From positions 195,442-259,441 of the forward strand of contig JANQFH010000008.1 of the NCBI GenBank assembly GCA_028277945.1: a stretch of DNA of 64,000 nt, given 5' to 3'. The DNA comes from Oligoflexia bacterium. GTDB taxonomy: Bacteria; Bdellovibrionota_G; JANQFH01. The position numbers were made by a program, and so were the translations under genes. How positions within the stretch are numbered: position 1 is the first letter of the stretch; each line of letters opens with the position of its first letter. Of this stretch, positions 5,728 through 62,596 are shown piece after piece. The notes under the pieces are model-generated. The model saw only the letters and a list, made by a program, of their open reading frames with translations. It had not been told where the DNA came from and searched no databases.

Positions 5728-5736
5728 TCTCCAAAC

Positions 5737-6675: not shown

Positions 6676-6688
6676 GGCCTACAGTGAG

Positions 6689-10907: not shown

Positions 10908-11045
10908 TAAGCGCTCTGTCACGATAACAAAAGGATAGACCACCCATAGTGTCCCCAGGGGCCGATTTGCAACTAGCCAGCGCATGCGATAGACTAGATC
11001 TAAGCTAAGACAACGAGATTTTTGAACATCTTCGCGGAGATACGC

Positions 11046-14607: not shown

Positions 14608-14619
14608 GATCAGCATACA

Positions 14620-17643: not shown

Positions 17644-17648
17644 GCTAT

Positions 17649-18392: not shown

Positions 18393-18395
18393 CTT

Positions 18396-25611: not shown

Positions 25612-25616
25612 TTGTG

Positions 25617-26933
25617 TTATGATCCTGACCGCACAGAGCTCTTTCGTTTTTGTTCGGATAATAAATAGACAGAAAAAATAGAAACAACACAGATGATACA
25701 CACTGTAATCATGGCCTCTTCAACAGAAGGAGCTCCATCTCTACATTTGCCTAGGTACCAGCTGTAGAAGCCGATACCTGCAAAAGCAGGCATATTCTGT
25801 AAACTTAGAGCTGTTGCCAATTCCTCATTGTCTACTACGGAGCATAGAAGGTTAGTTGCTAATGCGCCTGTGGCTCCGACCACAACATCAGCCATAACGG
25901 CGTATACTAAGATCATGAGGATTAGCATCGTAGGGTTTAGTGAGCTGAATGTACATAAAATATACAGACTGATTGTAGCAAGAAGAGTAAAGTGAATTAA
26001 GAGGTAATTATTTGTACTTAATCTTTTGCTCATCACTAGCCTTGGTAGTACATGTCCTCTTACAATCCATCCTATTCCACCATAAGCAAAGGTAAAGAGT
26101 CCCATGATAAACCACGAGAATAGGCCGTGGTCCGCATTTCCAAACTGTCTACCCAGAGTGATCGCAAAGTAGCCCGCGTTTACTGCAGCTAACATAAAGG
26201 CTGATAGCCGTAAATAAATCGCCTTTTTGGCGACCATACTTTGCCGTAACCTGCTGATTAGATTCGATGTGCTTGGTCTCCCCCCACTTATTGAAGTATC
26301 ACCATAAATACGAAAGTCCCTGAAAAGACGATAGAATCCTGCATACCATAGCAAAATACCGATGATCAGTGTGTGATGCACTCCAATGGTGTGATAGGTA
26401 ACAAAAAGTAAGACAAAAGCCAGCAGGATAACCAAGGCTGTGAGATATTTCCCGGCATGTTGGCTGAGAGTAAAACTTTGGCTGGCCATTTTCTCTGCTT
26501 CGTTATGTCCTTTTGATAACCTACGGATAGCATCCTGGTAGAAAGCCTCCACAGATCCTGAAATCAATGGCTTTGAAAATCCAACAATGACGCCATGTAT
26601 GATAAAAAGAAGCCGAGAAAAGGTGTTCGGCATGCTCGGGAAAAGGGCCACATAGATGCCACAGGTTCCAAGGAGAATAAGAAAACCGCCCAATAGTGCG
26701 CAAGGAATTCTACCAAAACGATCCGCAACGTATCCCATTGGAACTTCAAAAATCACATTCATCAGAAACTCAATGCCCGTAAGCAGAGCAACTGTATCAA
26801 GCGGTACGTTAGCCAGCACACCAGCAGTAATACGGAAAGTGATCGAAATGAAATGAGTTGATGCGAGGTTGAGAGCTCTAAATATACCTAAACTTTTAAC
26901 ACATGCTTGAGTTTGTGCGAGGGTTTGATCCAT
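25617..26933 (-). CDS. MFS-type transporter
   Basis: 438-aa polytopic membrane protein with MFS motif-A-like loop GYVADRFGRIP. Confidence 0.7.
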   Translation of the reverse strand: MDQTLAQTQACVKSLGIFRALNLASTHFISITFRITAGVLANVPLDTVALLTGIEFLMNVIFEVPMGYVADRFGRIPCALLGGFLILLGTCGIYVALFPSMPNTFSRLLFIIHGVIVGFSKPLISGSVEAFYQDAIRRLSKGHNEAEKMASQSFTLSQHAGKYLTALVILLAFVLLFVTYHTIGVHHTLIIGILLWYAGFYRLFRDFRIYGDTSISGGRPSTSNLISRLRQSMVAKKAIYLRLSAFMLAAVNAGYFAITLGRQFGNADHGLFSWFIMGLFTFAYGGIGWIVRGHVLPRLVMSKRLSTNNYLLIHFTLLATISLYILCTFSSLNPTMLILMILVYAVMADVVVGATGALATNLLCSVVDNEELATALSLQNMPAFAGIGFYSWYLGKCRDGAPSVEEAMITVCIICVVSIFSVYLLSEQKRKSSVRSGS

Positions 26934-31196: not shown

Positions 31197-33940
31197 GGCA
31201 AATTGGGATCAATTGTAAACGTTCCCTGGGTGGTCTCCTCTAAGCCATTGTCATACAAGACCGTGGCGCTGACGTTAATTGGTTGGTCCTGCGCGGTGAT
31301 AGGTTGCGACACGTCACCAATAAGAGCACGGTTGTAGAGTTTAACGGTATGGGGTGAATTGGGCTGCAACATACCCTGGGTACCATCACCCCAATCAATG
31401 TTGACGCTGACAATATCAAGCGTTGGGTTAAGCAGTTCAGACATACTTGCATCCACAAAGAGCCACATTGGGTCTTTAAAAGGCACGGCTGAAGCGCGTA
31501 GGACAAAACCATTCTGAGGTGTTGATGGAGGAGGATCATCCGGTGGCTTGATCATTGCTTTGGTCACGAGGTAGCCAGGGCCACGTTTTCCATCGGCCAG
31601 GGAGTTTAATTCTAGGATGACCGTATCGCTGTCTGTGGCTGCATCCAGAGGTATAGTAACAGTGACTCCTTGTAGCTCGGTGTTTTTGTAGGTGTTGACA
31701 ACGGTTTCAATAGTACCGGTGGTGTCCAGCTTGATAATGGTGAGTGTGTCTTGATTGCCGGTATCGTCAAAGAAGAAGCGAGTTAGGTTATCAAAGGTGA
31801 GCATCATGCCCCCTGCAGCTGCAGCTCCAACCACGGTCTTTTTCTGTCTGAATTTATCCACCAAATCAGGGTAGGGACGTGGGGATTCAAGGTTGGACCC
31901 ATCATCTGCTGATTCAACAAAGCCTGGTGGGTTGGTAAAGCTGCCAACGCCTCGGGAAGCAAAGGCCTGTTGGATATCTTGGCTGTGCAGGCCACCAAAC
32001 ATCAGTTGATCAGTTGCTTGTAAGATGGTGGGAACATCGGGCAATCCATCCAATGAGGTGAAGCTAGCAACAGATTCTTGCATGATTAGGTAGGCTAAAT
32101 CGCCACGCATTTTGCTCCATTCCCAACCGGCAGAAGAACAAATCCGACTATCTTCGTGTTTTTCGCCAACAATGTCATCAGGAAAGGTAAGGGTGTTGTC
32201 GACGTTGCGGATGAACTGGAAACCAAAGTTCTTTGCATAGTACGGAGCAATTTCCGGGAATTTCAACATCAACGCAGAGTTTAGATCAGCAAAGCACTCG
32301 TCAATCAGCTCGTTGGCCGGGCCGCCAGTAAACGGGTAAATACCACCACCACGTACATGGTTAGCCCAGTGCTGCCACTCATGATATCCTACACTAGCGT
32401 CCCTCGATCCTTCAAACGAAGGACCGGCATCAAAGATTACCTTGCCAGTAATCGAATCATAAAAGTTTCCGAATGCACTCAAATTGATAGCCTCTGCTAG
32501 AGCGGCTCCTGGTAGGCCTGGGGGGTGGTCTAGAGGACCTGAGAATAAGTCGTCTAAGCTGAGGAGCTCAAAGGCATGTCCTTGGTCTGTGAGCCAACCG
32601 AGCACATTCACTTCAAGAGCGTGCAGTTTGTCAAGCGGAGAGCCAGCAGTCAAATAGCCGGTAAAATCGAGATCAGCTTCAAAAGCACGTTCAAACGGAG
32701 GCTCAACGATCGTTTTGACAAAATTGTTTTGTAGAAAACCCGTACCATCCACAAAGATCGGCTTGCCAAAATGAGTATGGTCTCCATCGGGATCTTGAAC
32801 ATCACCAATACCCACAGCCGCTATCAAAGGATTTTTCACTCCAAGAATGTCGCCATTTTCTGCATCAAAATATACTATCCGCTTGGTTTCTCTGTAGACT
32901 CGTTTACCATCATCGAGAGTTCTAGAATAGGCAAAGTCTGCATGTCTGCCGTTGTCTACGAAGTGTCCCTCTACCACAGCCTTGTCAACCACCTTGGGTG
33001 TAGTCTGAGCGGCATCTTTTTCTATTATGGCTCTGCCATCGTGAAGGATATTAGTATTAGCAACCTTGTCGGCATTGTAGGTAGTCTCTACGAGAATGCC
33101 CTTATCCATAATCTCGATGGATTCAATTTCCATCACGACGCCAACGGTTTTTGGAACACGTCTAGAGGTGTAATAGGTCTCTAACACATCGAGCTGTGCG
33201 CCTTGCCATCTGCTAATAATCTCTCGTTCACTCAACCACTCACTCGAGTCGACTGTTTCCTCAGGACGCGGGTTATCAAGCATTTGTATGGCTACTTGGG
33301 TAAGCGTGCCGGCGTTGGCTTGCCCGCTACCAACCAATTCAGTAGATCTCTGTCCACTAAAGAGATTTCCACCTGAGCTTTTTACCAAGGGTAGGGCCTT
33401 TTGCTCTCCTGGCTGTAGTGCCAATCGTTCAACGATCAACTTGGCGATCTCTTCAGGATCTTCTGGCTTCTCTATAGGAGGCTCATAGGCTGAGAAGAGC
33501 ACCTTCACCAGGCCACCAAAGACTGGCAGCTCTCCTAGCTTTTGTTTAAAGATAACCACGGTTGTGCGCTTTCCAGGCACGATTGTGGGGTCTTCTAGCT
33601 CATCGACACTTATTTCTAGCTCGGCGGCATTAGCCCGCAGAAACTCTAGGGCAAAGTCTTCGTAGTCTTCATTACTGTAGTGACTCTGACTACCCAATTG
33701 GTTGGCTAACGAGTGCCCTCGGATACCATAGACACGCTTAATACGGGTATAGTTAGGGTGGTTGGTATTTTCTTGCCAGGTCTCACCACTATATAATTGA
33801 TAGTAGCGAAGATCTTCAGAAGGCGCTGCAACCAGTTGTTGCTGGGTGACGACTCCCAAGAAAAGCAGTGGCAGGAGCAAACTCCCTGCCTTGACTAGAA
33901 AAGTTCTAGGACGACTGAGGCTCATGTCACTATCCTCCAT
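31193..33940 (-). CDS. large secreted protein with HExxH-like motif (possible metallopeptidase)
   Basis: 915-aa ORF with signal peptide; HEWQH motif followed by an acidic ELIDECFAD segment; family not assignable by eye. Confidence 0.4.
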   Translation of the reverse strand: MEDSDMSLSRPRTFLVKAGSLLLPLLFLGVVTQQQLVAAPSEDLRYYQLYSGETWQENTNHPNYTRIKRVYGIRGHSLANQLGSQSHYSNEDYEDFALEFLRANAAELEISVDELEDPTIVPGKRTTVVIFKQKLGELPVFGGLVKVLFSAYEPPIEKPEDPEEIAKLIVERLALQPGEQKALPLVKSSGGNLFSGQRSTELVGSGQANAGTLTQVAIQMLDNPRPEETVDSSEWLSEREIISRWQGAQLDVLETYYTSRRVPKTVGVVMEIESIEIMDKGILVETTYNADKVANTNILHDGRAIIEKDAAQTTPKVVDKAVVEGHFVDNGRHADFAYSRTLDDGKRVYRETKRIVYFDAENGDILGVKNPLIAAVGIGDVQDPDGDHTHFGKPIFVDGTGFLQNNFVKTIVEPPFERAFEADLDFTGYLTAGSPLDKLHALEVNVLGWLTDQGHAFELLSLDDLFSGPLDHPPGLPGAALAEAINLSAFGNFYDSITGKVIFDAGPSFEGSRDASVGYHEWQHWANHVRGGGIYPFTGGPANELIDECFADLNSALMLKFPEIAPYYAKNFGFQFIRNVDNTLTFPDDIVGEKHEDSRICSSAGWEWSKMRGDLAYLIMQESVASFTSLDGLPDVPTILQATDQLMFGGLHSQDIQQAFASRGVGSFTNPPGFVESADDGSNLESPRPYPDLVDKFRQKKTVVGAAAAGGMMLTFDNLTRFFFDDTGNQDTLTIIKLDTTGTIETVVNTYKNTELQGVTVTIPLDAATDSDTVILELNSLADGKRGPGYLVTKAMIKPPDDPPPSTPQNGFVLRASAVPFKDPMWLFVDASMSELLNPTLDIVSVNIDWGDGTQGMLQPNSPHTVKLYNRALIGDVSQPITAQDQPINVSATVLYDNGLEETTQGTFTIDPNLP

Positions 33941-35657: not shown

Positions 35658-37493
35658 CTAGGCACTATATCTCGCCAGTGATGATTGATTGTTCAATTCG
35701 GGCATTACTAGTAGCGGCACAGTATTCGCCAGCATTTTAGGTAGTAATTTCACTTTCCACTTAGTACATAATTCTTGAATTTCCATTTCTTCAAAGCGAG
35801 AAGTTACAAGTATTGATTGTTGCTCCAGCCTGTATTCCTTGATCAAATCCAATCCGGTTTTTTTACTTCCTAGCAATTCATAGTCAAAAAGATAAATTGA
35901 TGGTCCCTGTTCTTTATGTTGTGCTAGATAGCTTGATGCATCGGTATAATTAGACAAATCAACTTGATTAATGGAATGTAGATATTTCAGCGGGCCAAGC
36001 CGGTTTGTCCACACGTGGTGGATAAATATATCGTCGTCAAGTACTACAAAGTCACTATTTGGCTTTATATGAATTTTTGGAACATACCAATTTGGTGGAG
36101 GAGCCTTGGGAACTATCATCTTCACATTCGTTCCCATGTTTTGCCGTGAGTCTATTGTTAGTTCTCCATGCCAACGTCCTAAGGAGCTCTTCGCATAGTA
36201 TAAGCCTAGTCCTAATCCATGTTTCTTGTTAGCAGTCACACCTCTCTCTGTCGCTTTTTTAAGCAGTTCCTCTGACATGCCGCATCCATTATCCGAGACT
36301 TCAATACAAAAATTGTCTCCGGAACAATTGCATAGTCGTATACTAACTTCACCATTATTTGGAATAGCTTCCACGGCGTTATTAATAAGGTTCGAGAGAA
36401 TTCTTTTGAACTCGACAATCTCGACCTTCGCAAAGATACTATAGGCTTCTTCCGTAAAAACTGTATTAATCTTTATATCCTTACGTCCTGAAAACTGAAT
36501 CCTCTTTTCGGACACAAGAGTTTCTATAAGCACGGCGATCTGCTGAGTACTTACACGTTCGAAGTGAGTGTTGTCTAAATGGCGGGCATCCTGATCTGAG
36601 TAATAGGTATTGTCATTCCAAAGTAGCTGACGATGCTTTTCTACTAAGCTATTAGCAATATCCTGAATACGTGTGGCCGCTTGTCGCAAAAGAACACGTT
36701 GTTCTTCAGGGATATCACTAGAAGACTTGCCCAACATCTGCAAAGCAGTCAACGGTGATCTGATATCATGGGCCACTCTTGAGGCAATCTCGCCCATTGC
36801 GGCCTTCTTTGTTGCTCGTACTAGAACAGCTTGGGCTGTTTCTAATTCTTTTACCAATTTTCGAGTATTTTTGTATAATTCATTAATCTCCTTTATGTTT
36901 GAAAATCGTACTTCTTGAGAATTCTCAAATAGAGACCTTAGTCCATGTTGCGAAAGTCGTCTAGATAGATGCACTATCGGCCAAGTAATTTTTTTTCCTA
37001 TAACCCCTCCTATCCAGACGAATATAATAAATAGGGAAACAAGGGCTATTACGAGCACTACTAACGCTCGATAAACAGATCGTGATAATAGTTGTTGTGA
37101 AAAAACAATCTGGATCGTTGCTGCCATTTCTTTGCTAGTTTGATCAAAGTAGACATGAGAGGTAATAACTTCAGTTGAGGAGATTCCCTCACGTTTGGTG
37201 GTACTGCAGATTGAAAAATTTTGACTGTCAACAACACTTATACCCAAAATTGACCGGTCACGTAAAAGTATTTTACATTTTCTGTAGACTTCCGCATGGG
37301 CTCCTATAAGAAGACTGTGGCTTATGTCCTCGGTAAAGATGTTTACGATAGATTGGAACTTTGCTTGAAGCTCCTCCTCTGCACTCTTCTTTATCAAGTA
37401 GAGTGCCAATGCCCCACTAAGTACGACAGTTGCCGCCGTTATGACGGCTGAGGGAACGAACATAGCCCTGCCTAATGTCCACCTAAATCTCAT
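35658..37493 (-). CDS. hybrid sensor histidine kinase with C-terminal receiver domain
   Basis: Paralog of the other two kinases; H-box VAHDIRSPLTAL, N-box NLINNAVEA, G-box DNGCGM, REC-like VVLDDD ... LFDYEL; start taken at ATG 37493 (track TTG start at 37532 is the alternative). Confidence 0.85.
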   Translation of the reverse strand: MRFRWTLGRAMFVPSAVITAATVVLSGALALYLIKKSAEEELQAKFQSIVNIFTEDISHSLLIGAHAEVYRKCKILLRDRSILGISVVDSQNFSICSTTKREGISSTEVITSHVYFDQTSKEMAATIQIVFSQQLLSRSVYRALVVLVIALVSLFIIFVWIGGVIGKKITWPIVHLSRRLSQHGLRSLFENSQEVRFSNIKEINELYKNTRKLVKELETAQAVLVRATKKAAMGEIASRVAHDIRSPLTALQMLGKSSSDIPEEQRVLLRQAATRIQDIANSLVEKHRQLLWNDNTYYSDQDARHLDNTHFERVSTQQIAVLIETLVSEKRIQFSGRKDIKINTVFTEEAYSIFAKVEIVEFKRILSNLINNAVEAIPNNGEVSIRLCNCSGDNFCIEVSDNGCGMSEELLKKATERGVTANKKHGLGLGLYYAKSSLGRWHGELTIDSRQNMGTNVKMIVPKAPPPNWYVPKIHIKPNSDFVVLDDDIFIHHVWTNRLGPLKYLHSINQVDLSNYTDASSYLAQHKEQGPSIYLFDYELLGSKKTGLDLIKEYRLEQQSILVTSRFEEMEIQELCTKWKVKLLPKMLANTVPLLVMPELNNQSSLARYSA

Positions 37494-39021
37494 TGTCTTT
37501 AGCCCACTGTAGTCGGTAGAGAGGAAAGTCAAATTGGTAGCGTTTTTCCGGGACTTTAATATGTTTGTGGTAAATTACCGGAGTATAAAGATGAAATAAT
37601 GGAACGATAAATGACTTTTCCTCAAACTCAATCATTAGATCAGTGTATTTTTCTAATCTCCGTATACGGTCAGATATGAAACTGATTTCATCAGCACCCT
37701 TTAAAAGCTTCGTTGTGGGGAAATTGCCAAATTGGATTGGATTTTTGGCTCGAAACAAGTCTAGGAAGCCATCTGGGTCTGGTATGACTCCAAAATAACC
37801 TACCATAATCAAATCGTAATCTTTGCTTTTTAGAAGAGGTATAACCTCTTCAATATTTTTGAACTCTATAATCGGGATCATACCTACGTTGGTCAACACT
37901 TCACTGATAGCCTTACCTACAGGTATGTTTAAATATTCTTTCCTCAAAACTATTCTAAGCTTTTTATGTTTTACTTTATTTTTCCAGAGCTTTTTGAAAC
38001 TGATCGGACTCATACGGCGAAAGTCACGTTCGTAGTATCTTCTTAGAAGAACGCCATGTGGTAAAAAATGCTTCTGATGGTCTATAAAGAAACCGGGTTT
38101 CTCTATCTGGGAAACTCGAGTTTTTATTAGCGCCGCAATATCTCTTCTAAAACTTTCATTACTTAGTGCTGGATTGTCAGTGTTTGTATATAGATGTAGG
38201 ATGCCCAGTCCTCCTAGACGGAGTAACTGATAATTATTTGGTAGTGTTCCCGGTTGTAATCCTGGATCAGCAAAGCCTAATGCGAAGTCAATCGAGTCAT
38301 TCCGTAATTGTGATAGTAGTTGATTTGCGCTTTCTACCCGTCGAAACGAAAGCCTGGATATATGGCTATCATTGGGAACGAACGGAACCATCTGCAGACG
38401 ATTTGGCAGTTGTACTGAGTCCAGAGAAAAAGAGCCAGACCCCACTACCTGAGAAGAACTACCAGAGGACTTTTTAGTTACACCGTAACCAGGTACTGCT
38501 AACAATTCTAACAGATACGGATACGGACGCTTGAGGCTTAGAATAATCGTGTGCTGATTCGGAGTGATAATTCCCGATGGTATTTGTCCATCTTTCAGGT
38601 TTTCGGCACCTACCACGATACGACCTAGATAGCTGGATATTTGCGTCATACTACCTTGCCATAAATGGCGTGACAGACTAAAGGCGATATCTTTACTCGT
38701 AATGAGCGCACCATCATGGAACCGAGCATGACGATCCAGATGAAAGCTATAACGTCTTCCATCTGAAGATATCTTCCAGCGCCTTGCAAGATCAGCTGTA
38801 ATACGATTTTCTTTGTCTAACTTTACTAGAGTGCGTAAGTATGGTCTAAGAAGGTCAGAATGTACGTAATGCCACGCATCTATTGGATCCAGAGAGCTGG
38901 GCAAAATAGGCAACGCTATCTCAAAGCTGTTGGTTGTCTTACGGTACTTCTGTTTAGATGATGCTGCATAAGTATGAAAGACAAATGAAAATAAAAGAAA
39001 GTGCAACAGGCACGCCTTCAT
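37483..39021 (-). CDS. family-5 extracellular solute-binding protein, orphan
   Basis: SBP5 paralog; start taken at ATG 39021 (MKACLLHFLLFSFVFHTYAASS signal peptide; GTG at 39042 is the alternative); stop overlaps the kinase start. Confidence 0.8.
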   Translation of the reverse strand: MKACLLHFLLFSFVFHTYAASSKQKYRKTTNSFEIALPILPSSLDPIDAWHYVHSDLLRPYLRTLVKLDKENRITADLARRWKISSDGRRYSFHLDRHARFHDGALITSKDIAFSLSRHLWQGSMTQISSYLGRIVVGAENLKDGQIPSGIITPNQHTIILSLKRPYPYLLELLAVPGYGVTKKSSGSSSQVVGSGSFSLDSVQLPNRLQMVPFVPNDSHISRLSFRRVESANQLLSQLRNDSIDFALGFADPGLQPGTLPNNYQLLRLGGLGILHLYTNTDNPALSNESFRRDIAALIKTRVSQIEKPGFFIDHQKHFLPHGVLLRRYYERDFRRMSPISFKKLWKNKVKHKKLRIVLRKEYLNIPVGKAISEVLTNVGMIPIIEFKNIEEVIPLLKSKDYDLIMVGYFGVIPDPDGFLDLFRAKNPIQFGNFPTTKLLKGADEISFISDRIRRLEKYTDLMIEFEEKSFIVPLFHLYTPVIYHKHIKVPEKRYQFDFPLYRLQWAKDNEI

Positions 39022-39038
39022 CAAAATGTGAATGAGTT

Positions 39039-40130
39039 TCACTGCGTACTCCGGTCACAGTAGATCTCAATATCATTCTGTTTTATCAGTATATGTTTTT
39101 GTGTATACGTTACTTCTACGCCTTTATGGTGTGCTTTGTAATCATATCTATAATGACCATCGAAATATCGGCATATTTGTAACGGCCCTGATTTTTTTAG
39201 TAGGTCTGTCACCCCCAATTGTAGAGGATTTTTATTTCCCGAACGTGATGACGAGGCCATCTCCTGAAACGGATGCAATTTTGAATCAATTCGCTTAGGT
39301 ACATTAGGATGAGCGTAATAAAATATTTCTCTGTCACCGCACTTCCTAAAGTAATAGGGAATGTCACCTCGTTCTAATTGTTCTAGCTCACTAGGTAGAA
39401 ATTCGTTCCCGTTTAAATTATTCGCCTTCTTTGTCAAGAAGGAATGATAATCTCTTGTAGACCGAGGAATGACCCGAATCGGATTTTGCATGAATCCATC
39501 AATGGAAGCAAAAAGATTCGCTGTGAGTTCTGTTACTGATGAGAGAAAGTTCAATGCGTCAAAAAAACCAAAGCAAATTGCAGCAACGCCACTGTGGGAT
39601 CTATCCAACTCTCGAAAGTTATTTAATAGGTGGGAGAGTCCTGAATCTTCAAATGTCAATGCAGGGGAAGGTATGAGTGCTGTTTCAGAGAGAAGTGTGT
39701 GATCTTCAAAGATACATTCTATATCGATAGGGCTGAATATGATACTGCCAGCAGAAGTCTTGCCAAGCAATACATTGGCACGGTGCAGATCTCCAATTCC
39801 GAACCAAGTAATAAGTGCGATGGTACGGCCAATATCTTCTAATACTTCTAAATCTAGATCTTTGGAAATGAGAGGTTTAAGTAGGAGTTCCTCTACTCTG
39901 CCAAAACATTTTTCACCAGGAGATGACATTTCGACATATAGTTTTGGTAAAGATCTTCCTGGGTATACAAATCCCCTTTTCTTAGCTTCAGATTCTAATA
40001 AAGATGTTAAGGGACTTAATCGAGATAAGAAGAGGTATTCCCAAAATACAGTTCTAGGCTTGCAAATCCTTTGGGTACCATCACGACAAACTCGCTGTCC
40101 AAAATTGTGAGGGTCGCCTAACGGTTGCAT
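39039..40130 (-). CDS. hypothetical protein, possible kinase-like phosphotransferase fold
   Basis: 363-aa ORF with GGGAGG before the ATG; segment GIGDLHRANVLL resembles catalytic loops of aminoglycoside/protein-kinase-like phosphotransferases; occupies the modifying-enzyme slot of the cassette. Confidence 0.35.
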   Translation of the reverse strand: MQPLGDPHNFGQRVCRDGTQRICKPRTVFWEYLFLSRLSPLTSLLESEAKKRGFVYPGRSLPKLYVEMSSPGEKCFGRVEELLLKPLISKDLDLEVLEDIGRTIALITWFGIGDLHRANVLLGKTSAGSIIFSPIDIECIFEDHTLLSETALIPSPALTFEDSGLSHLLNNFRELDRSHSGVAAICFGFFDALNFLSSVTELTANLFASIDGFMQNPIRVIPRSTRDYHSFLTKKANNLNGNEFLPSELEQLERGDIPYYFRKCGDREIFYYAHPNVPKRIDSKLHPFQEMASSSRSGNKNPLQLGVTDLLKKSGPLQICRYFDGHYRYDYKAHHKGVEVTYTQKHILIKQNDIEIYCDRSTQ

Positions 40131-50306: not shown

Positions 50307-50426
50307 AATTCCCGATCGGTAATAAATAGGCCTCAAATCTGTCTTATTTGATATAAAATTCCCGATCAGGAATAATTTTCTTGATTTCAGTCTAGGTGTA
50401 GATTAATATTCCCGTACGGGAATATG
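50307..50426. promoter_or_regulatory. three spaced palindromic operator-like sites upstream of hipBA
   Basis: AATTCCCGATCGGTAAT (about 50307..50323), ATTCCCGATCAGGAAT (about 50358..50373) and the perfect 16-bp palindrome ATTCCCGTACGGGAAT (50407..50422) at about 50-bp spacing; the third ends 1 bp before the hipB ATG at 50424. Confidence 0.55.
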
Positions 50427-50654
50427 AAACAGGCAGCAGCACAGATTGGTCATTTAGTGAAAAAGACCCGTAAAAGTCTAGGTGTCACCCAGAAGGAGTT
50501 GGCGCTGACCTCGGGTACAGGTCTGCGCTTCATCATTGAGCTGGAGAAGGGCAAACCGACCTGTCAACTAGCCAAGGTGCTGACGGTTCTACATACGCTG
50601 GGCATCAAGCTTGAGCTAACGGCGCCAGCCACTGCAAGAGATGACGGCAAATGA
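50424..50654 (+). CDS. hipB: HipB-like XRE-family HTH antitoxin
   Basis: 76-aa ORF with HTH segment LGVTQKELALTSGTGLRFIIELEKGK; overlaps the hipA start by 4 nt. Confidence 0.7.
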   Translation: MKQAAAQIGHLVKKTRKSLGVTQKELALTSGTGLRFIIELEKGKPTCQLAKVLTVLHTLGIKLELTAPATARDDGK

Positions 50655-51907
50655 GCAAGACTCTTGATGTTTATTTGTACCGCCACCTGGTTGGCTGCCT
50701 CATACAGGATGAGCATGGTCTGATGGTATTTGATTATGCAGAGAACTGGCTAGAGAATCCCAACGCAATTCCTCTATCGTGTTCGCTACCGCTAAGAAAA
50801 GAGCGCTTCTCGTTTAAGGAATGCCGAGGATTTTTTACCGGCGTCCTACCAGAAGAAAGTAAACGAGAGGTGATTGCGCGCATTTTTGGAATTAGTGCAC
50901 GCAATGACTTTGCCATGCTTGAGCAAATTGGCGGTGAGTGCGCTGGAGCAGTTACTTTCATTCCCACTGGTCAATTGTTGCCGGAGCGTGACGAGCACTA
51001 CCGTGAGGTTTCCAACCAAGAGTTGGCGGAAGTTCTTCGAACACTACCAACTCGGCCCCTTTTGGCGGGAGAAGAGGGCGTCCGTCTATCGCTAGCAGGT
51101 GCACAGGACAAAATTGCTGTTCGTATGGATGGCGATAGAATCTCCATTCCGCTTGGAGACTCTCCCAGCACACACATCCTGAAGCCCGACATCGAGCGTT
51201 TCCAAGGGGTGGTTTTCAACGAGGCGCTCTGTATGCAATTGGCGGCCTCTATCGGCCTACCAACGGCGAATGTACAAACCCGCAGCGTTGAAGGCATCGA
51301 TTATCTTTTGATTGAACGCTATGACCGAGTGGTTCATATGACGTCCGATGGTCAGGCAAAGCTTCAACGTCTGCATCAGGAGGATTTTTGTCAGGCACTC
51401 GGTATTCCATCCGAGATGAAGTACCAGAGCGAGGGAGGGCCATCTCTCAAACAGTGCTTTAGCTTACTGCGAGAAGTTTCCAGCGCACCGGTGATCGACC
51501 TACAGCATCTTCTAGATGCCGTTATTTTTAATCTGCTGATTGGCAATCACGATGCGCATGCAAAGAACTTTTCATTTTTGTATGGAGATGGGACATCAGT
51601 AGAGCGGGGGACAAGACTTGCACCTCTGTATGATCTGATCAGCACCGTCTATTACCCAGAACTATCCAAGAAGATGGCCATGAAAATTGGTGGTGAGTAT
51701 GCTGCAGACAAAATCTTCCCAAGACATTTTGAGAGACTTGCCGAAGAGGCTGCCTTAGCCAAGCCGATGGTCAAGAAACGTATACCGGAGGTAGCTGAAT
51801 CCCTGATACACAGTCTAAGCAGCTTAACTACTGAAGAGTCGGTAGCAAAGGGTGTCACTCAAACTATACAAAAGCAGGCTGAATTGGTTCTGGAACGATT
51901 CAGATAA
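50651..51907 (+). CDS. hipA: HipA-family serine/threonine kinase toxin
   Basis: 418-aa ORF; HipA N-terminal region and catalytic motif FNLLIGNHDAHAKNFSF, plus LAGAQDKIAV. Confidence 0.85.
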   Translation: MSKTLDVYLYRHLVGCLIQDEHGLMVFDYAENWLENPNAIPLSCSLPLRKERFSFKECRGFFTGVLPEESKREVIARIFGISARNDFAMLEQIGGECAGAVTFIPTGQLLPERDEHYREVSNQELAEVLRTLPTRPLLAGEEGVRLSLAGAQDKIAVRMDGDRISIPLGDSPSTHILKPDIERFQGVVFNEALCMQLAASIGLPTANVQTRSVEGIDYLLIERYDRVVHMTSDGQAKLQRLHQEDFCQALGIPSEMKYQSEGGPSLKQCFSLLREVSSAPVIDLQHLLDAVIFNLLIGNHDAHAKNFSFLYGDGTSVERGTRLAPLYDLISTVYYPELSKKMAMKIGGEYAADKIFPRHFERLAEEAALAKPMVKKRIPEVAESLIHSLSSLTTEESVAKGVTQTIQKQAELVLERFR

Positions 51908-51913
51908 GGTTAG

Positions 51914-52180
51914 TTATTTCCCCCATCCGATATATTTCTTGTAACCTTTTTCTAAATTTATAATTTCAAAGACATCACCATCAAATGTTGAGCACTGCAA
52001 TTTTTTTCCATTACATCCAAGATTGGCGTAGTTAATTTCTGGCTGGTGTCTGGATGGCGGTGCTAGGGTCCACATTTCTTTACCGTTTAGATCGAACGCT
52101 CGGATGTTTTGTGGGTCTCTGGATTCAAAGAGAAAGACGATGAGTTTATCAGCTAGGTAGGCTGTTTGATACATTCCCAC
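51914..52180 (-). CDS. immunity-like small protein, N-terminally shortened paralog of 52293..52658
   Basis: 88-aa ORF sharing RDPQNIRAFDLNG ... DVFEIINLEKGYKK with 52293..52658; in-frame stop about 8 codons upstream of its start. Confidence 0.4.
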   Translation of the reverse strand: MGMYQTAYLADKLIVFLFESRDPQNIRAFDLNGKEMWTLAPPSRHQPEINYANLGCNGKKLQCSTFDGDVFEIINLEKGYKKYIGWGK

Positions 52181-52292
52181 AATGCTTTGGGATTGGTACA
52201 GGCTTGAGGTTATCAGTTTTTATCTCTATGTTATCGCCGTTAGTAATAAAATATATTGAATTGAGCATTCTGAGTTTGCCAAACAACGTTGA

Positions 52293-52658
52293 TTACTTAC
52301 CCCATCTTTTTTTAAAACCTTTTTCTAGGTTTATGATCTCGAATACATCGCACTCCACTGTAGCGCATAGCAGACTGTTTTCATATTCCCATAGATTGAC
52401 GTAGTAGACCTCCGGTCTATATCTAGATGCCTTTGTTAGTGCCCATAATTCATTGCCATGGAGATCAAAAGCACGGATATTCTGTGGGTCTTTGGATCTA
52501 AAAAGTACAATAATGATGTTATCGATCAGATATCCTACTGTAATCTTCCCATATGTTTTAGGAAGGAGTATGGATTTGTGATTGTCTACTTTTATTTCTA
52601 TTCTATTGTCTCTTTCTAGAAGTTTTTGTAATTTCACCATATTATTGGTTCGCTCCAT
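52293..52658 (-). CDS. immunity-like small protein (downstream of large secreted toxin-like gene)
   Basis: 121-aa ORF overlapping the 3' end of 52634..54766; no signal peptide. Confidence 0.4.
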   Translation of the reverse strand: MERTNNMVKLQKLLERDNRIEIKVDNHKSILLPKTYGKITVGYLIDNIIIVLFRSKDPQNIRAFDLHGNELWALTKASRYRPEVYYVNLWEYENSLLCATVECDVFEIINLEKGFKKRWGK

Positions 52659-54766
52659 GCTTCAACCGATGATTCTAGAGGTTCATCAATCAATTCCCAT
52701 TGAATGCCTCCACCCGGAGTACCGAATTCATCAACTTTGTCGACGATTCCCTTTCTTAGAACAGTACTCGTAGGGACACGAACTTCGACCATGAAGGTCA
52801 TACTATTATTTGGAGGAAGAGAATATAAATCCCTTACAACACTTTTACTCAGAGTTCGAGGATCAACTTCCATTAACCATGGCCCCATTTTGTCAGAATT
52901 ATCTCCAAACACTCGATAGAAGATTTTTGTTTCTTTTAGTTCTATTGTTTCAACAATCTGATTTGGGGCATAGGGCCTGATACCTTTGGCATATTTCCAA
53001 TAGCTGTCAACCGCACCGGCGGTCTGTTTGCCAGGAAGAGCAGCTTTTGCCAGTTTGGTCCAGGTCGAGGCTTGTGTGAGCTCTTCTGGGGTTATCTGGT
53101 CCTTTTGTACGGCGCGGAAGCCGCGAAGGGAGAGGAGGACAGGACGTTTTTTGACGAAGGCTTCTACGGTCTCTGGGCCCAGCTCTGCGACCACCGTGGC
53201 GAATCCGGCGCTGGCCTGCTTTTCTCCGGAAATGGCCATCTTTAGGGCGATGGCTTGGGTATAGGGGCCGAGACGGGGCAGGGTATCGACAAGAACGCCA
53301 GACTGTAATGCCTTTGCCATCCTGGCGTGGTGGATTTTGGCGAGGGGGATGCCAACTTTACTCAAGACAACGCGTAATGATTGGACGCCGATGGCTCTGG
53401 CAAGACCGCCGATGGTATTAACGCCGAGGCTGCCGAGTGCCAGGACCGTTTCCCCAGCTATCCCTGGGGCAGTGATGGCGTCACGATCCACAAAGCCATC
53501 GGTGAGATACTTGGCGATGGCTGCTGCGGTTGCTGCTCGCAGGTAGTCGCCTTGGGAGAGGGCCTCTTGGCTACTGCGGATCTGCTCCTGCAGTAGGGCA
53601 GGTGAGTACGGTTGGTTGTAAGGGGTGATCTTACCGGCAACCACCTGCTGGTTGTAAAGGGCAGCACGGATCAGGGTGTTGAACACGGCACTTTCGGCTG
53701 CTGCATCGATCTCCGCCAGTCCTTCGTGCAGAGTGCGTTCAAAATCGTAACTGCGGAGAATTCCCGCCAGTCCTGAACGGAGTGTGGCGAGTTTCGTGCG
53801 CATGCTTTCAAAAAGCTCACGGGTTGCCAGCATCGAGGCATGCAAGTTGGGATCTTCAATCAGATCGGCAACAGCCTCGATGGTAAGCAGATGCAGATCA
53901 ACAGCTTCGGTGAGCTCTAAGACAAGATACTCGTCGTTGACACGAATGGCCTCCTCGACTTTGGCTCCTAGAGGCGCGTACGCAGCTGCCAGGGACTGTT
54001 TGAGTGGGTCTCTGAGAAGAGAGAGAGGATTTTGAAAGACATCATGGAAGATCTGTTCAGGGTTCCAGAGATTTTCTAGATCCACCTCCTGCATGGCTTC
54101 TTCAATGAGCTCTCTGTGGGTGGCACGGGCCATGTTTGCTACTGCCTTGTCCCCCTCTAAGGTATCGAGGCCGACGACAATGGTGTTTTCACTCAAGTGG
54201 CTCCATTTGAGATTTGCCTGTTGATGAAAGCGCTGGTAAAGCGCTTGCATCCGGGGGATTAAGGATTGTTGTTCGTAACCTTTCCACTGTTGGTGTTTGA
54301 TGCGGATCACTTCTGAATTGGGACGAACAGTGTGCAATGGCTCAGGTCTTTTAGGTGGCTCTCTAGGATCGACCTCACCAGGATGAGGTCTGTCCCAGTG
54401 AAAGGGATCGAAGTCATTAAAATGATCATGACCGTTGCTGTTGGGAAGGTCGTCTTCAGCATACTGTTCATCGACCGGATGAGGTCGTTCTGTCGGGTTT
54501 TTTGGGGATTCGTTCTTTACGGGAAATTCAACATCACGCTCCATCGTGACGGTGATTTTTCCTGTTTTAGGATCTATATAAACTCCAGGATAACCTCCAG
54601 GCATGATGTCTTTAGGCGCGTGGTTATTTCCTGGTTTTTCGACCTCGCTCCCATTGCCATCACCGCCGCCTGTTTCCTGAGCGCTAGCTGATAAATCAAC
54701 AGCTGATGTGGCCATGATATAGAGAGTCAACAAGAAGGTGATAAATCTCTTCAGAGAGTCCTTCAT
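52634..54766 (-). CDS. large secreted polymorphic-toxin-like protein
   Basis: 710-aa ORF; signal peptide, Gly/Pro-rich region, long helical region; C-terminal about 100 residues contain an R ... TST ... QWE arrangement (FYRVFG, PTSTVL, IQWELID) compatible with, but not proving, an ADP-ribosyltransferase-like domain. Confidence 0.45.
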   Translation of the reverse strand: MKDSLKRFITFLLTLYIMATSAVDLSASAQETGGGDGNGSEVEKPGNNHAPKDIMPGGYPGVYIDPKTGKITVTMERDVEFPVKNESPKNPTERPHPVDEQYAEDDLPNSNGHDHFNDFDPFHWDRPHPGEVDPREPPKRPEPLHTVRPNSEVIRIKHQQWKGYEQQSLIPRMQALYQRFHQQANLKWSHLSENTIVVGLDTLEGDKAVANMARATHRELIEEAMQEVDLENLWNPEQIFHDVFQNPLSLLRDPLKQSLAAAYAPLGAKVEEAIRVNDEYLVLELTEAVDLHLLTIEAVADLIEDPNLHASMLATRELFESMRTKLATLRSGLAGILRSYDFERTLHEGLAEIDAAAESAVFNTLIRAALYNQQVVAGKITPYNQPYSPALLQEQIRSSQEALSQGDYLRAATAAAIAKYLTDGFVDRDAITAPGIAGETVLALGSLGVNTIGGLARAIGVQSLRVVLSKVGIPLAKIHHARMAKALQSGVLVDTLPRLGPYTQAIALKMAISGEKQASAGFATVVAELGPETVEAFVKKRPVLLSLRGFRAVQKDQITPEELTQASTWTKLAKAALPGKQTAGAVDSYWKYAKGIRPYAPNQIVETIELKETKIFYRVFGDNSDKMGPWLMEVDPRTLSKSVVRDLYSLPPNNSMTFMVEVRVPTSTVLRKGIVDKVDEFGTPGGGIQWELIDEPLESSVEAWSEPIIW

Positions 54767-54767: not shown

Positions 54768-55964
54768 TTAATCTTCTTCTAGTTTGTTGAGAGCTAGTTC
54801 CGCGAACGCGGCATATGTGCCATGGCTGTCTTCGTTAGCGATTTCTGCGTAGAGTAGAAGTGCCTTTGCCTGTTCAAGCTCTGCTGGCAGGACTCTGCCG
54901 CTCTTTTCTAGCTTGCGGATACGCTTTTGGATCCAATAGGAAGGTGGATTCTTTGTGACCAGGCGTCGGTATTTTTTGACCTTTGCTGTCCATTCAACGG
55001 CCAGCTCTTTTGCCTTTTTCGCCTCTTTTTCGCGCAAATCAAGCGACAGTAGGGCATTAAGGAGGATGAGAGAACCTGTTTGCAGGACTTCTAACCTTCG
55101 TAGGGCCTCAAAGTAACGGTAGTGCAGGAGTAAAGCATCTTGAAACTGTTGCTCCAGCTCCACCAATACATTCTCGGCATCGTAGTAGGCGTCAAGACTG
55201 ACTTCTGCATGAGCCAGCCTCTCCTGAAAATCCTTGTACATACCATGGGCTAAAACTTCGGAGGTGTGGTCGAGGTATTTCTCCAAAGTTTCGCCATACT
55301 GCTCGAAAATGCGCCCATAAGCTTGCTCGACTTGTGGCAATGGTTGCCTGAGCTTTTCGCAGTAATCCACCAGAGGGGAGAAACCATGTGATTTGAGCCA
55401 AGAGATTGCACCTGCAAGGGATGGCTTGTAGCCGTATTGCAGATCTTGTGAATATTCGGGAGGAATGGCATCTACAAGTCGGTCGGCGTTGGTTTCGAGG
55501 ACGATGCGACACTGTGCTTCCATGGACGATAACGACCTACGGTATCGTTCCAAGGCCGTGGTGGCTTTATGTTCTTCCTCGGCAAACCCAAAAGCCGCCG
55601 TATGGAGCTTTTGTGTCCACTGCTTTGCCTCTTCAGCCCCTAGACTCTCAACCTCCGGAGGTTGTATTACTTGGACATTCTCAGCAGCTACAGCAATGGT
55701 CCTGAATGCAGACTTCATCACCTCACGATGTTTGACCCCTTGTAGATATGCCCCATTCAAGAAATCGTAGGCTTGCAGGCGGGCCTTTTCATGGACTATC
55801 TTGCGTTTTAGCTCATCTTTTTGCGTCTCAATTTCTCTCCTCTCACGTGCCATTTCTTCGACAGATTGTGCCTGACTAAGAGAAGGAAGTGAGACAAACA
55901 ACAAAAGTAAAAGAGGAAGATTGAACAGGTTTGTCATAACAACGTTACTTTTAATCGCCCTCAA
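54768..55964 (-). CDS. secreted coiled-coil hypothetical protein
   Basis: 398-aa ORF with signal peptide (LFVSLPSLSQAQS); 1-bp gap to the downstream toxin-like gene. Confidence 0.4.
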   Translation of the reverse strand: MRAIKSNVVMTNLFNLPLLLLLFVSLPSLSQAQSVEEMARERREIETQKDELKRKIVHEKARLQAYDFLNGAYLQGVKHREVMKSAFRTIAVAAENVQVIQPPEVESLGAEEAKQWTQKLHTAAFGFAEEEHKATTALERYRRSLSSMEAQCRIVLETNADRLVDAIPPEYSQDLQYGYKPSLAGAISWLKSHGFSPLVDYCEKLRQPLPQVEQAYGRIFEQYGETLEKYLDHTSEVLAHGMYKDFQERLAHAEVSLDAYYDAENVLVELEQQFQDALLLHYRYFEALRRLEVLQTGSLILLNALLSLDLREKEAKKAKELAVEWTAKVKKYRRLVTKNPPSYWIQKRIRKLEKSGRVLPAELEQAKALLLYAEIANEDSHGTYAAFAELALNKLEED

Positions 55965-55969
55965 TAGTG

Positions 55970-57538
55970 CTAATAGCGGCGTCCTACTTGGTCTCCATAT
56001 CTATCTAGTATAGGAGTTTGCGTCCTGTACTTTTTATCGCCTTCGATAGCCCCAATAGCGGCGTCCTCCTTGGCCTCCATACACTTTGTATAGAGCAGAT
56101 CGCGTCCTGTATCTTTTAAGGCGCGAATAAACTTTTGCAGGTGTTTGGTTTCATCTTGCACTTCAAAACTCTTGGAAATCAGCATGGCATGCAGCTCTGT
56201 TAAGCGAGTGAATGCTCTGCCTATCTCGTCTTCCGGGCCGACTGTATCTGTAGGTTCCTGCATAAGGCTGTAAACGGCGATCAGGCGCTCATAGTCGCTT
56301 AGCGACAATTCTTCGTCTTCATAGAGCTCTTCTACTGTCTTCCGAAACGCTTTCGGGCGCTTCTCGATCTTAGCTAGCGTCCATTCCTGCAGATTCCCTA
56401 CTTTTTTGAGTAACAACAGCCCTTCGAGTGTTGCGGCTGTAAGTTCTAACTCTTGGAAGGTATCGTCGTACTCCTCATCGTTTATAGCGCGGAGACGATC
56501 GATGATTCTTTTTAGCGAGGATTCGGATTTCTTGAAATAGGCTTTGAATATCCTGCGTGCCTCAAAATTGACCATTAACGCTCTTTCAAGATCTTCTTTG
56601 TCTGATTTAATTAGCGTTTCGAGCCAACTCAGGCGATTTTCTGCATCACCAAGGTTTGTGCAAGCTTCGAGCACAGAGTCTTCATAAACAAGGAGATCGT
56701 AACCAACGAGGTTAAGGGAGTAACTACGAAGCATCCCAACAGGCATTTTTATCTTTATTGTTGTGTTTCCCAGCAGGTCTAACTGCTGTCTCATGCTGGA
56801 CCTTGCTGTGTAGGTCCATCGCTGTGGTCCTCTTTCTTGACACCAAAATCCGTCTTTAGGATTATGATGGTGTGCGTGACGCCCATTTAAATTGCAGTAA
56901 CACCAGCCACTGTCACCCGTGTAGGTGGGTTTTCCATAGCGCCAATGATCCTCGGGAAAGACGATTTCAACACGGTGCATACGGTATAGAGAGTTTAACT
57001 TGCTTAAAGGGGTGTCACCGAGAAATGCATTGGTCGTCTGTTCGGTGCGAAATTTATTCCAGTCTATGACTGCGAGTGGAAGAGGAAAGTTTTCAATATC
57101 ATACCTCTTATAAGATGCTGGAGGATCTAACGCAGACGAGAAAGGTCGATAGCTGACGGTTGTTTGGGGAAATGGATATTTGTATTTAAACAGTGTTTCG
57201 TCATTTTGTTTATAATAGAGCTTAAAATAGACGTTGCTTCCTAAGAGCTGCTGCTCCAGCTCTCTATGTACTTCGGAATCATCAATTCCTTCGCCTTTCG
57301 CACCCATCTTGCCAAATAGCCGAACTTTGTAGGTGGCGGGATAGAGATATGATTCTCTTTCGTCAATATCCTCAAAATCTGAAAGGAATAATCCCAAGGA
57401 AGGAAGGCCTTGCTTCATCGCATAGCTGTTAACGTAGTAAATTTCACTCTTAGCCCAGGAGATTGGTGGAAAAATAATTAGGACCATGGTTAGAAGCAGA
57501 AAATATAGCCAGGGGATATGTGTTACTCGGTTTGACAT
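55970..57538 (-). CDS. membrane-anchored hypothetical protein
   Basis: 522-aa ORF; N-terminal TM/signal segment; His-rich patch HAHHHNPKDGFWC; first gene of a same-strand string ending at 51914. Confidence 0.4.
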   Translation of the reverse strand: MSNRVTHIPWLYFLLLTMVLIIFPPISWAKSEIYYVNSYAMKQGLPSLGLFLSDFEDIDERESYLYPATYKVRLFGKMGAKGEGIDDSEVHRELEQQLLGSNVYFKLYYKQNDETLFKYKYPFPQTTVSYRPFSSALDPPASYKRYDIENFPLPLAVIDWNKFRTEQTTNAFLGDTPLSKLNSLYRMHRVEIVFPEDHWRYGKPTYTGDSGWCYCNLNGRHAHHHNPKDGFWCQERGPQRWTYTARSSMRQQLDLLGNTTIKIKMPVGMLRSYSLNLVGYDLLVYEDSVLEACTNLGDAENRLSWLETLIKSDKEDLERALMVNFEARRIFKAYFKKSESSLKRIIDRLRAINDEEYDDTFQELELTAATLEGLLLLKKVGNLQEWTLAKIEKRPKAFRKTVEELYEDEELSLSDYERLIAVYSLMQEPTDTVGPEDEIGRAFTRLTELHAMLISKSFEVQDETKHLQKFIRALKDTGRDLLYTKCMEAKEDAAIGAIEGDKKYRTQTPILDRYGDQVGRRY

Positions 57539-57901: not shown

Positions 57902-58138
57902 GTGATGAAACAAGCGAAGCTATTTAAGAACGGTCAGAGTCAGGCGGTGAGACTGCCGAAGGAATTTCGTTTTAAGGGGAATCGGGTATTTATTCGTCGG
58001 ATTGGGAATGCTGTGGTACTTCTTCCTGAAGATCAGCCATGGCAACCACTGTTAGAAAGCCTGGAACACTTTTCAGATGATTTTATGCAGCAACGTCGTC
58101 AGCCTTCCTCGCAAGAGAGAGATCTCTCTTTTGACTGA
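57902..58138 (+). CDS. vapB: AbrB/MazE-fold antitoxin (VapB-type)
   Basis: 78-aa ORF with SpoVT/AbrB-like segment KNGQSQAVRLPKEFRF; stop overlaps the vapC start. Confidence 0.7.
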   Translation: MMKQAKLFKNGQSQAVRLPKEFRFKGNRVFIRRIGNAVVLLPEDQPWQPLLESLEHFSDDFMQQRRQPSSQERDLSFD

Positions 58139-58536
58139 TGTATCTTCTTGATACCAACATTTGTATTTATATTATCCGAAAAAAACCGAAGAAAGTATTA
58201 AACCAACTGCAGTCTATATCTCCTACTGAGATTGGCATCTCTGCTGTGACCCTTGGCGAGTTGCAGTATGGTGTTGAAAATAGTAAACAGCCGACAAAAA
58301 ATCAAGAGGCGCTGAATTATTTTTTGGCACCATTAGAAATCTATCTGTTCGGTGTGGAAGCAGCTCAGATGTATGGTAAGGTACGTGCTGATCTCGAGAC
58401 CAGAGGCAAGACCATTGGGCCGTTTGATACGATGATTGGGGCACACGCTTTGGCATTAGGGGCGATTTTGGTTACAAATAATACTAGGGAGTTTTCGCGG
58501 ATTAAGAGTCTATCTGTCGAAAACTGGACTCGGTAG
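58138..58536 (+). CDS. vapC: PIN-domain ribonuclease toxin VapC
   Basis: 132-aa ORF; PIN-like acidic residues (MYLLDTNICIY ..., TLGELQYG, FDTMIGAHALALGAILVTNN). Confidence 0.8.
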   Translation: MYLLDTNICIYIIRKKPKKVLNQLQSISPTEIGISAVTLGELQYGVENSKQPTKNQEALNYFLAPLEIYLFGVEAAQMYGKVRADLETRGKTIGPFDTMIGAHALALGAILVTNNTREFSRIKSLSVENWTR

Positions 58537-61895: not shown

Positions 61896-62183
61896 ATGAA
61901 AAGGTCATCAGCACTACCCAAAAAATCTATTAATATCGCAAGCTTAAAGGCAGAGTTGGCGAAGTATCTGCGCTTGGTTAAAGCTGGAGAGGAGGTTGTG
62001 GTGTTGGAGCATAGGATGCCGATTGCCAAGATTATCCCGTTTGCGACCGATAGCACGCTCGAGTCTATTCAGCCTAAAGGGAACTTTGCCGCCAAGGTGG
62101 CTAAATTAAAGATTCCGCCGCTAAAGAGGAGAACTGGTGTTGATTCCCTCAAGCTTCTTTTGGCCGAACGTGGTCAGCGCTGA
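61896..62183 (+). CDS. Phd/YefM-family antitoxin
   Basis: 95-aa ORF with Phd/YefM-like N-terminal region (ASLKAELAKYLRLVKAGEEVVVLEHRMPIAKIIP); overlaps the downstream PIN gene start. Confidence 0.55.
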   Translation: MKRSSALPKKSINIASLKAELAKYLRLVKAGEEVVVLEHRMPIAKIIPFATDSTLESIQPKGNFAAKVAKLKIPPLKRRTGVDSLKLLLAERGQR

Positions 62184-62596
62184 TGTTAGCCTACGTGGAT
62201 TCGTCTGTACTACTGCGCATTGTTCTTGCGGAACCTCACGCCCTAAAAGAGTTCAGAGAGATCAACTTTGCGGTCTCTAGTGAGTTGATTCGGGTTGAGT
62301 GTTTAAGAACGATGGATCGTTATAGAGTGCAAGCGTCTCTGTCGGAGGAGGAGTACCTATCTCGTGTTGGTCTTGTGCACGACCTTCTTGCTGAGTTTGA
62401 ATTGATTAAAATTTCATCCATGGTTTTGAACCGAGCCTGTCATCCCTTTCCCGTCAGGCTAGGAACCTTGGATGCTATCCATCTTTCAAGCTGCCTATTG
62501 TATGGAGAGAGGGCCGAACAAGAGATCACCCTCTGCTCCCATGACGAAAGCTTAAAAAGAGCAGCGCGATCTCTTGGACTAGCTGTGCTTGGTTAG
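62183..62596 (+). CDS. PIN-domain toxin (VapC-like)
   Basis: 137-aa ORF; PIN-type pattern (LAYVDSSVLL ..., TLDAIHLSS). Confidence 0.65.
   Translation: MLAYVDSSVLLRIVLAEPHALKEFREINFAVSSELIRVECLRTMDRYRVQASLSEEEYLSRVGLVHDLLAEFELIKISSMVLNRACHPFPVRLGTLDAIHLSSCLLYGERAEQEITLCSHDESLKRAARSLGLAVLG

Follow-up and report, generated by a model that had tools for sequence, protein, structure and literature searches.

The nearest known toxin family to the system described here is that of the TNT-like NADases. It includes Tne2 of the Pseudomonas protegens type VI secretion system (T6SS), Tse6 (also Tne1), the C-terminal toxin of Rhs1 (Rhs1-CT), TNT and fungal NADases. TNT-type NADases share a strictly conserved glutamine and a glycine cradle (PMC10539506; PMC6398120). 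The active-site glutamine is Q822 in TNT, Q387 in Tne2, Q413 in Tse6 and Q1452 in Rhs1 (PMC10539506; PMC6398120). In TNT the glycine cradle is followed by Gln822, and an arginine binds the substrate (PMC6398120). The immunity proteins of the TNT-like NADase subfamilies are mutually unrelated (PMC10539506). Also known are polymorphic toxins that depend on Sec and combine lineage-specific N-terminal domains with a lineage-specific secreted partner; MafA and MafB of Neisseria are an example (PMC3482391). Here we describe a locus in a 64,000-nucleotide stretch of DNA from an Oligoflexia bacterium (contig JANQFH010000008.1; the whole stretch is called the window). The locus encodes a 710-residue protein that we read as a Sec-exported polymorphic toxin, whose last ~125 residues would form a divergent TNT-like NAD(P)+ glycohydrolase accompanied by immunity. 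We give this reading a probability of roughly 0.78.

The locus comprises five minus-strand genes in head-to-tail order. A sequence-only reading of this DNA had reported a secreted 710-residue protein followed by two small genes, and all three open reading frames (ORFs) are indeed found on that strand. The toxin gene is located at 52634-54766. Its product consists of a Sec-type leader, a unique N-terminal and helical region, a pre-toxin region and the putative C-terminal NADase domain. The predicted signal peptide covers residues 1-29 (54680-54766) and was read from the translation. MKDSLKRF is followed by a hydrophobic core and then by A27-S28-A29, with cleavage predicted before Q30. By eye, Sec-type leaders are present on the first three proteins of the cluster (522, 398 and 710 residues) and absent from the small ones.

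The C-terminal domain and its homologs

An exhaustive HMMER scan of 1.84 G representative proteins with the toxin returned 199 proteins with expect values (E) of 1e-3 or lower. Homolog counts in this text refer to the 150 matches listed, and the Pfam scan took in 147. All 150 match the C-terminal part of the toxin only (residues ~580-710), and in 145 the matched domain ends at the C-terminus of the homolog or a few residues short of it. The homologs range from 90 to 3446 residues in length. Among the matches listed, the closest homolog, P0004, alone extends back to toxin residue 446. In a BLASTP alignment, toxin residues 447-710 are 32% identical to residues 278-550 of P0004 (E 9e-29). Pfam places PT-TG (PF14449) at residues 293-355 of P0004. 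Toxin residues 447-585 align to this PT-TG-bearing part, with weak similarity and without a Pfam match in the window protein. The pre-toxin region covers residues 446-585 (53012-53431), and the toxin domain covers residues ~586-710 (52637-53011).

The homologs carry diverse front ends. Pfam detects PT-TG in 13, LXG and RHS in three each, DUF4280, DUF637 and PT-HINT in two each, and Fil_haemagg and Phage_Mu_F in one each. The same C-terminal domain is thus joined to different N-terminal trafficking domains, as in polymorphic toxins. The Pfam TNT model (PF14021) matches 34 of the 147 homologs at E≤0.01, the best at 6.2e-8. The link of the window toxin to this model is transitive only, because the protein itself is unmatched and these homologs are matched. 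Since the domain is C-terminal, occurs on diverse polymorphic-toxin front ends and is TNT-matched in these 34 homologs, by sequence criteria it is a mobile TNT-family toxin domain. It appears too divergent for the Pfam model in most members, this one included. The clade is therefore poorly served by Pfam TNT, with at least 199 clusters at 50% identity and about a quarter of those scanned matching.

Direct searches reached little. Pfam and PDB sequence searches with the last 181 and 121 residues of the toxin returned nothing, and none of the five proteins of the locus gave a meaningful match in Pfam, NCBIfam or PADLOC. In a word-indexed search of 5.8 G protein clusters, the full-length toxin and the immunity gene each matched only themselves. 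A family profile of 37 members had TNT (4QLP) as its sole PDB sequence match, at the GGxIQ loop, where GGgiQ of the profile is set on GGSIQ of TNT; at E = 1 this match is weak. The profile reached no chain of Tne2 (6B12) at E≤10, and Tse6 and Rhs1-CT were also unreached.

With an alignment of 37 sequences, AlphaFold (AF2) modeled the domain with a predicted local distance difference test score (pLDDT) of 93.4 and a predicted template modeling score (pTM) of 0.85. A single-sequence prediction of the full-length toxin gave a pLDDT of 37. The domain model shares the palm-domain fold of the solved TNT-type NADases. The structural comparison gave values of 12.7 for Tne2 (6B12), 11.0 for Serratia Rhs1-CT (6XTD), 9.1 for Tse6 (4ZV4), 8.2 for both the Aspergillus fumigatus NADase (6YGE) and the Fusarium NADase (8R15), and 5.6 for TNT (4QLP). 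Sequence identity between the toxin domain and these structures is 12-19%. The 6XTD entry is the Rhs1 NADase of Serratia marcescens (PMC10539506).

Residue conservation agrees with this fold. Q689 (codon 52700-52702) is found in all 150 homologs, and it follows a glycine loop (G682/G685-G687) in which G685 is conserved in 99%, G686 in 97% and G682 in 82%. The conserved glutamine after a glycine cradle, characteristic of TNT-type NADases, is thus present. R618 (codon 52913-52915) is found in 148 of 150, in the context [YFV]-R-V-x-G (YRV here). By motif order it would correspond to the phosphate-binding R757 in the DRxG motif of TNT. Additional conserved positions are L650 (94%), P651 (91%), W630 (90%) and T668 (87%).

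The sequence-only reading had seen a possible ADP-ribosyltransferase (ART)-like triad in this module. R618, T666-S667-T668 and Q689-W690-E691 are all present, and R618 and Q689 are conserved, but positions 667 and 691 are not. Position 667 is Gly in 136 of 150 homologs and Ser only here; position 666, a threonine in this protein, is Ala in 81. At position 691 the homologs have D (55), E (41), Q (27) or other residues. In R-S-E transferases, the S-T-S motif is conserved, and of the Q/E-x-E motif it is the second acidic residue that never varies. Because the invariant residue here is the first of that motif, Q689, and not the second acidic one, a triad of the R-S-E type (as in C3 and cholera toxin) was rejected. 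Remote homology and structure prediction of the module, which had been proposed as a check, did predict an enzymatic fold of the ART superfamily; the type it points to is the TNT/Tne2-type NADase rather than the R-S-E transferase. The enzymology should thus be better stated as that of a TNT/Tne2-type NAD(P)+ glycohydrolase, judging from the conserved residues and the model. It is quite improbable that the domain is instead an ADP-ribosyltransferase acting on a protein or nucleic acid, and not a simple NAD(P)+ hydrolase.

Several points weigh against our reading of the locus. ART-fold NADases and transferases are not separated by fold alone. The 710-residue protein has no match in Pfam (E≤10), NCBIfam or PDB sequences. 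The serine at position 667 departs from the glycine of nearly all homologs. The Asp756-Arg780 salt-bridge pair of TNT (DRxG and QRxL motifs) is seemingly replaced by Y617 and S649, by motif position only, and substrate handling may therefore differ from that of TNT. All signal peptides were judged by eye from translations, and no T5, T6, T7 or other dedicated secretion machinery is found in the 64-kb window. With the glycohydrolase reading, a protein that is blank in every sequence library gains a specific activity that can be tested, NAD(P)+ depletion.

The small downstream genes and the composition break

The two small proteins are paralogous to each other, with 55% identity over 87 residues (E 5e-34). 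Copy 1 is located at 52293-52658 as a 121-residue ORF starting at ATG 52658, and an external profile described below marks it as DUF7957-like. An alternative start at ATG 52640 (MVKLQK) gives 115 residues and is the start used in a public collection; we consider it the more likely one. The earlier description of a 121-residue gene overlapping the toxin stop is right about the overlap, but the start is likelier at the downstream ATG. From there the overlap is 7 nt, ATGGTGA, which contains the immunity start, the last Trp codon of the toxin and the toxin stop. The same stop/start overlap is found in relatives at other loci, namely L083 (TCATGGTAA, ~830-838) and L002 (ATATGGCC, ~4217-4226). That an overlap of a C-terminal Trp codon and stop (A-TGG-TGA or TAA) with ATG-G is kept across distant loci points to conserved translational coupling.

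Copy 2 (51914-52268) had been described as N-terminally shortened and decayed. It is indeed a disrupted paralog, but the disruption is a single +1 frameshift and not a truncation. The N-terminal third is still readable in a different frame (52149-52268, MLNSIYFITNGDNIEIKTDNLKPVPIPKHCGN), and the C-terminal part is an 88-residue ORF at 51914-52180. The DNA alignment with copy 1 revealed one extra base in copy 2, and any single-base deletion within about 52150-52199 restores an ORF of 117 residues. From the sequence, copy 2 is probably a tandem duplicate, put out of action by a single frameshift or by an assembly error.

Genomic context was fetched for seven homologs (L001, L002, L083, L084, L085, L086 and L087). 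In all seven, a gene of 113-136 residues directly follows the toxin, although the front ends of the toxins differ. The L085 toxin is LXG-like and lies beside DUF4176 in a type VII secretion system (T7SS) context, the L086 toxin is of the Rhs/YD-shell type, and the L087 toxin (5001-11428) has a Sec leader. The downstream gene of L001 has 133/121 residues. L002 has two tandem copies of 116 residues (4217-5318) that are 41% identical to each other. Because tandem duplication recurs in L002, the arrangement in the window is not unique. The contig of L087 also carries MobC/NikA and relaxase/primase genes, suggesting that this toxin-immunity pair is on a mobilisable element.

Precomputed Pfam matches to DUF7957 (PF25857) are present on the downstream genes of L002, L083, L084, L085 and L086; the match is weak on L001, and L087 has none. 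The 121- and 88-residue products of the window have no match to the Pfam DUF7957 model at E≤10. Copy 1 is 24% identical to the L001 neighbor (E 2e-7), and copy 2 is 37% identical to the L001 immunity gene. A hidden Markov model (HMM) was built from five neighbor genes only, from L001, L002, L083 and L084. Among the 282 window ORFs of at least 60 residues, it picks exactly two small ones, copy 2 (E 2e-12) and copy 1 (E 1.4e-7), and it also recovers the downstream genes of L085, L086 and L087. With this local profile, we infer that the small genes of the window belong to the DUF7957 family.

Their position supports a role in immunity. The gene lies immediately downstream of the toxin and co-varies with the toxin domain, as in polymorphic-toxin loci. 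Since the pairing holds whatever the front end, it bears the signature of a cognate immunity protein, and the DUF7957-type protein would be expected to neutralise the toxin domain. The earlier proposal of an immunity gene with a tandem paralog at a polymorphic-toxin locus is borne out by the DUF7957-type genes of the seven other loci. DUF7957 had no mention in the literature searched, so this assignment would give the family a function, as the immunity partner of this toxin clade. As far as tested, the window immunity proteins have no Pfam family in common with Tni2, Tsi6, RhsI1 or IFT.

The guanine plus cytosine (GC) content of the locus changes abruptly. Within the toxin gene it is 0.57-0.62 over residues 381-570, a range that also holds approximately for the pre-toxin region, whereas residues 601-660 have only 0.34-0.38. 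Values for the immunity genes are 0.36 and 0.40, compared with 0.45 for the window as a whole. The break from ~0.60 to ~0.36 is located at about residue 585-600, just where the homologous toxin domain begins. Because of this coincidence, and because low GC continues through both immunity genes, the composition supports a joint acquisition of toxin domain and immunity behind the pre-toxin region. A break within the gene, together with a different toxin (RES) in a paralogous locus of the window, is the pattern of a cassette-like replacement. A search for orphan remnants of toxin C-termini, both across the window and between the two immunity genes of L002, found none.

The frameshift also bears on whether the cassette is still active. 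A decayed domain or locus, a non-toxic relic, might be suspected from the frameshifted immunity copy, from S667 at a position where Gly is 91% conserved, and from a diverged 82-nt tandem duplication where the two upstream genes meet. We regard this as very improbable: the 710-residue ORF is intact, the remaining conserved residues (R618, W630, L650-P651, G685-G687 and Q689) are kept, immunity copy 1 is undamaged and its translation is coupled to that of the toxin, and the predicted domain model is of high confidence.

Accessory proteins, the paralogous locus and delivery

Two further genes precede the toxin gene. The first gene of the cluster encodes an accessory secreted protein of 522 residues (55970-57538, from the ORF list). 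The second encodes an accessory secreted helical protein of 398 residues from a TTG start (54768-55964, from the ORF list and a public collection search). An alternative start at ATG 55937 gives 389 residues, as in the public collection. This gene ends 1 nt before the toxin start. An 82-nt tandem duplication at 55946-56118, with copies 79-85% identical, spans the 3' end of the 522-residue gene and the start region of the 398-residue gene. Since 82 is not divisible by three, the second unit is translated in another frame; it supplies the final ~18 codons of the 522-residue protein.

A paralogous locus emerged at 16150-22077 on the minus strand when the window was searched all against all. It encodes proteins of 385, 594, 248, 247 and 497 residues. 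The 385-residue protein (20920-22077) is 21% identical to the 398-residue protein over 373 residues (E 1e-8), and the 497-residue protein (16150-17643) is 27% identical to the 522-residue protein over 134 residues (E 4e-10). The 594-residue protein bears a leader and has a C-terminal RES domain (E 3.6e-12). Its gene overlaps the preceding one by 4 nt. The 248-residue gene in turn overlaps the 594-residue toxin stop by 4 nt and has no Pfam match; it is likely the immunity gene of the RES toxin. This locus has no GC break. The two loci of the window thus have two accessory secreted proteins in common and carry different warheads. A RES domain, as in the NAD+-targeting toxins MbcT, ParT and Xre-RES, occupies the position of the TNT-like domain, and both loci are therefore armed with NAD+-utilising toxins of the ART superfamily. 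BLASTP gave no significant similarity between the 710- and 594-residue toxins, their N-terminal regions included.

The layout resembles that of the Neisseria Maf system, which has the order mafA (lipoprotein), mafB (Sec-dependent polymorphic toxin) and mafI. Like MafB, the window toxin has a signal peptide and an N-terminal region restricted to its lineage, and the gene just upstream encodes a secreted partner that is likewise lineage-restricted. The toxin at the C-terminus also varies (TNT-like here, RES in the paralogous locus), and downstream immunity genes include extra or decayed copies. Unlike the Maf system, the window proteins have no Pfam match to MAFB-N/DUF1020 or MafA, there are two accessory secreted proteins with type-I-like leaders and neither has a lipobox, the window has no orphan toxin cassettes, and the N-terminal regions of its two toxins are not detectably similar. 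The likeness is an analogy of layout only, because the Pfam scan found neither MAFB-N nor another domain. The system also differs from the known TNT-like NADases. Tne2, Tse6, Rhs1 and TNT are delivered through PAAR, Rhs and T6SS or through CpnT, whereas the window toxin has a Sec leader. It does not belong to the Tne2 subfamily as defined, in that no sequence homology to Tne2-CT was found and PAAR and Rhs domains are lacking. A Sec-dependent polymorphic toxin is already known as a kind; what is new here is a family member with a lineage-specific delivery module.

Genes upstream of the toxin in L001 and L002 also encode secreted proteins or lipoproteins. They were rejected as homologs of the 398-residue protein, with hhalign negative and BLASTP giving E 0.004 in a different register. 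The L001 and L002 genes are not homologous to each other either. Because of this, what these loci share, a secreted helical protein encoded ahead of the toxin, is a matter of position only. The 398/385 pair has no relatives beyond itself in the 5.8 G protein clusters and none in GTDB genomes or JGI metagenomes. The 522/497 pair has none in JGI metagenomes. In the search of representatives, the toxin N-terminus has no relative beyond P0004 among the matches listed.

Taken with the DUF7957 link, these orphan parts suggest a broader reading that we hold to be doubtful. The 398/385 and 522/497 proteins, with the orphan ~445 N-terminal residues of the toxins, may form an undescribed Sec-dependent apparatus that displays or delivers interchangeable NAD+-targeting toxins and is confined to a deeply branching lineage, and DUF7957 may be a family dedicated to immunity against a large TNT-like NADase clade that has no name yet. 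The novelty is modest: an unannotated toxin clade, its link to DUF7957 immunity, and an orphan delivery/accessory module duplicated with a RES warhead. The two loci offer a small, tractable example of how a Sec-dependent polymorphic toxin can be built without recognisable T5, T6 or T7 scaffolds in the window.

The absence of a contact-dependent apparatus from the window, together with Sec export, also bears on the target. The toxin could be aimed at a eukaryotic host or predator, like TNT of Mycobacterium tuberculosis, with the small protein serving as a self-protecting antitoxin like IFT. This alternative concerns the target and not the mechanism. TNT and the fungal NADases are in the same structural family, and a host-associated lifestyle may be possible for the source lineage. 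However, homologous domains are found on LXG/T7SS, Rhs, PAAR-like and contact-dependent inhibition (CDI) scaffolds, which are interbacterial weapons, and the tandem duplication of immunity genes here and in L002 is typical of interbacterial arms races. We consider a eukaryotic target unlikely.

An NAD(P)+ glycohydrolase toxin with immunity would then act as follows. The lineage-specific N-terminal region and the co-transcribed secreted proteins of 398 and 522 residues may keep the toxin at the cell surface or deliver it there, as has been proposed for MafA and MafB-N in Neisseria. On reaching the interior of a target cell, the domain would take up NAD(P)+ in a cleft formed by R618, W630, G682/G685-G687 and Q689. 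Hydrolysis of the nicotinamide-ribose bond would deplete the cofactor pool and stop growth. The overlapping gene, coupled in translation to the toxin, would supply a cytoplasmic DUF7957-type protein of ~115 residues that binds the domain and obstructs its active site, protecting the producer and its kin. The low-GC cassette of toxin domain and both immunity genes would have been gained by recombination downstream of the pre-toxin region.

Surroundings of the locus

The source organism appears to belong to a poorly sampled lineage. SelB of the window (488-2617) is 30-36% identical to its best 80 matches among 185,579 GTDB species representatives, and these come from Bacillota, Desulfobacterota, Acidobacteriota and further phyla. 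Several large ORFs of the window have no Pfam match, for example one of 915 residues at 31193-33940.

Addiction-type modules surround the toxin locus. They comprise a HipB-like helix-turn-helix protein with HipA (50424-51907), a MazE/AbrB-type antitoxin with a PIN protein (57902-58536) and Phd/YefM with a PIN protein (61896-62596); a Fic-domain protein is located further away (9717-10907). Repeated modules of a histidine kinase and an SBP_bac_5 solute-binding protein are found at 3907-8248, 12609-15888, 22314-26933 and 35658-40130. They are variously accompanied by YcaO-domain proteins, major facilitator superfamily (MFS) transporters and a DUF4135 (LanM-associated) protein. These modules look like several paralogous peptide-sensing clusters or clusters resembling those for ribosomally synthesised and post-translationally modified peptides (RiPPs).

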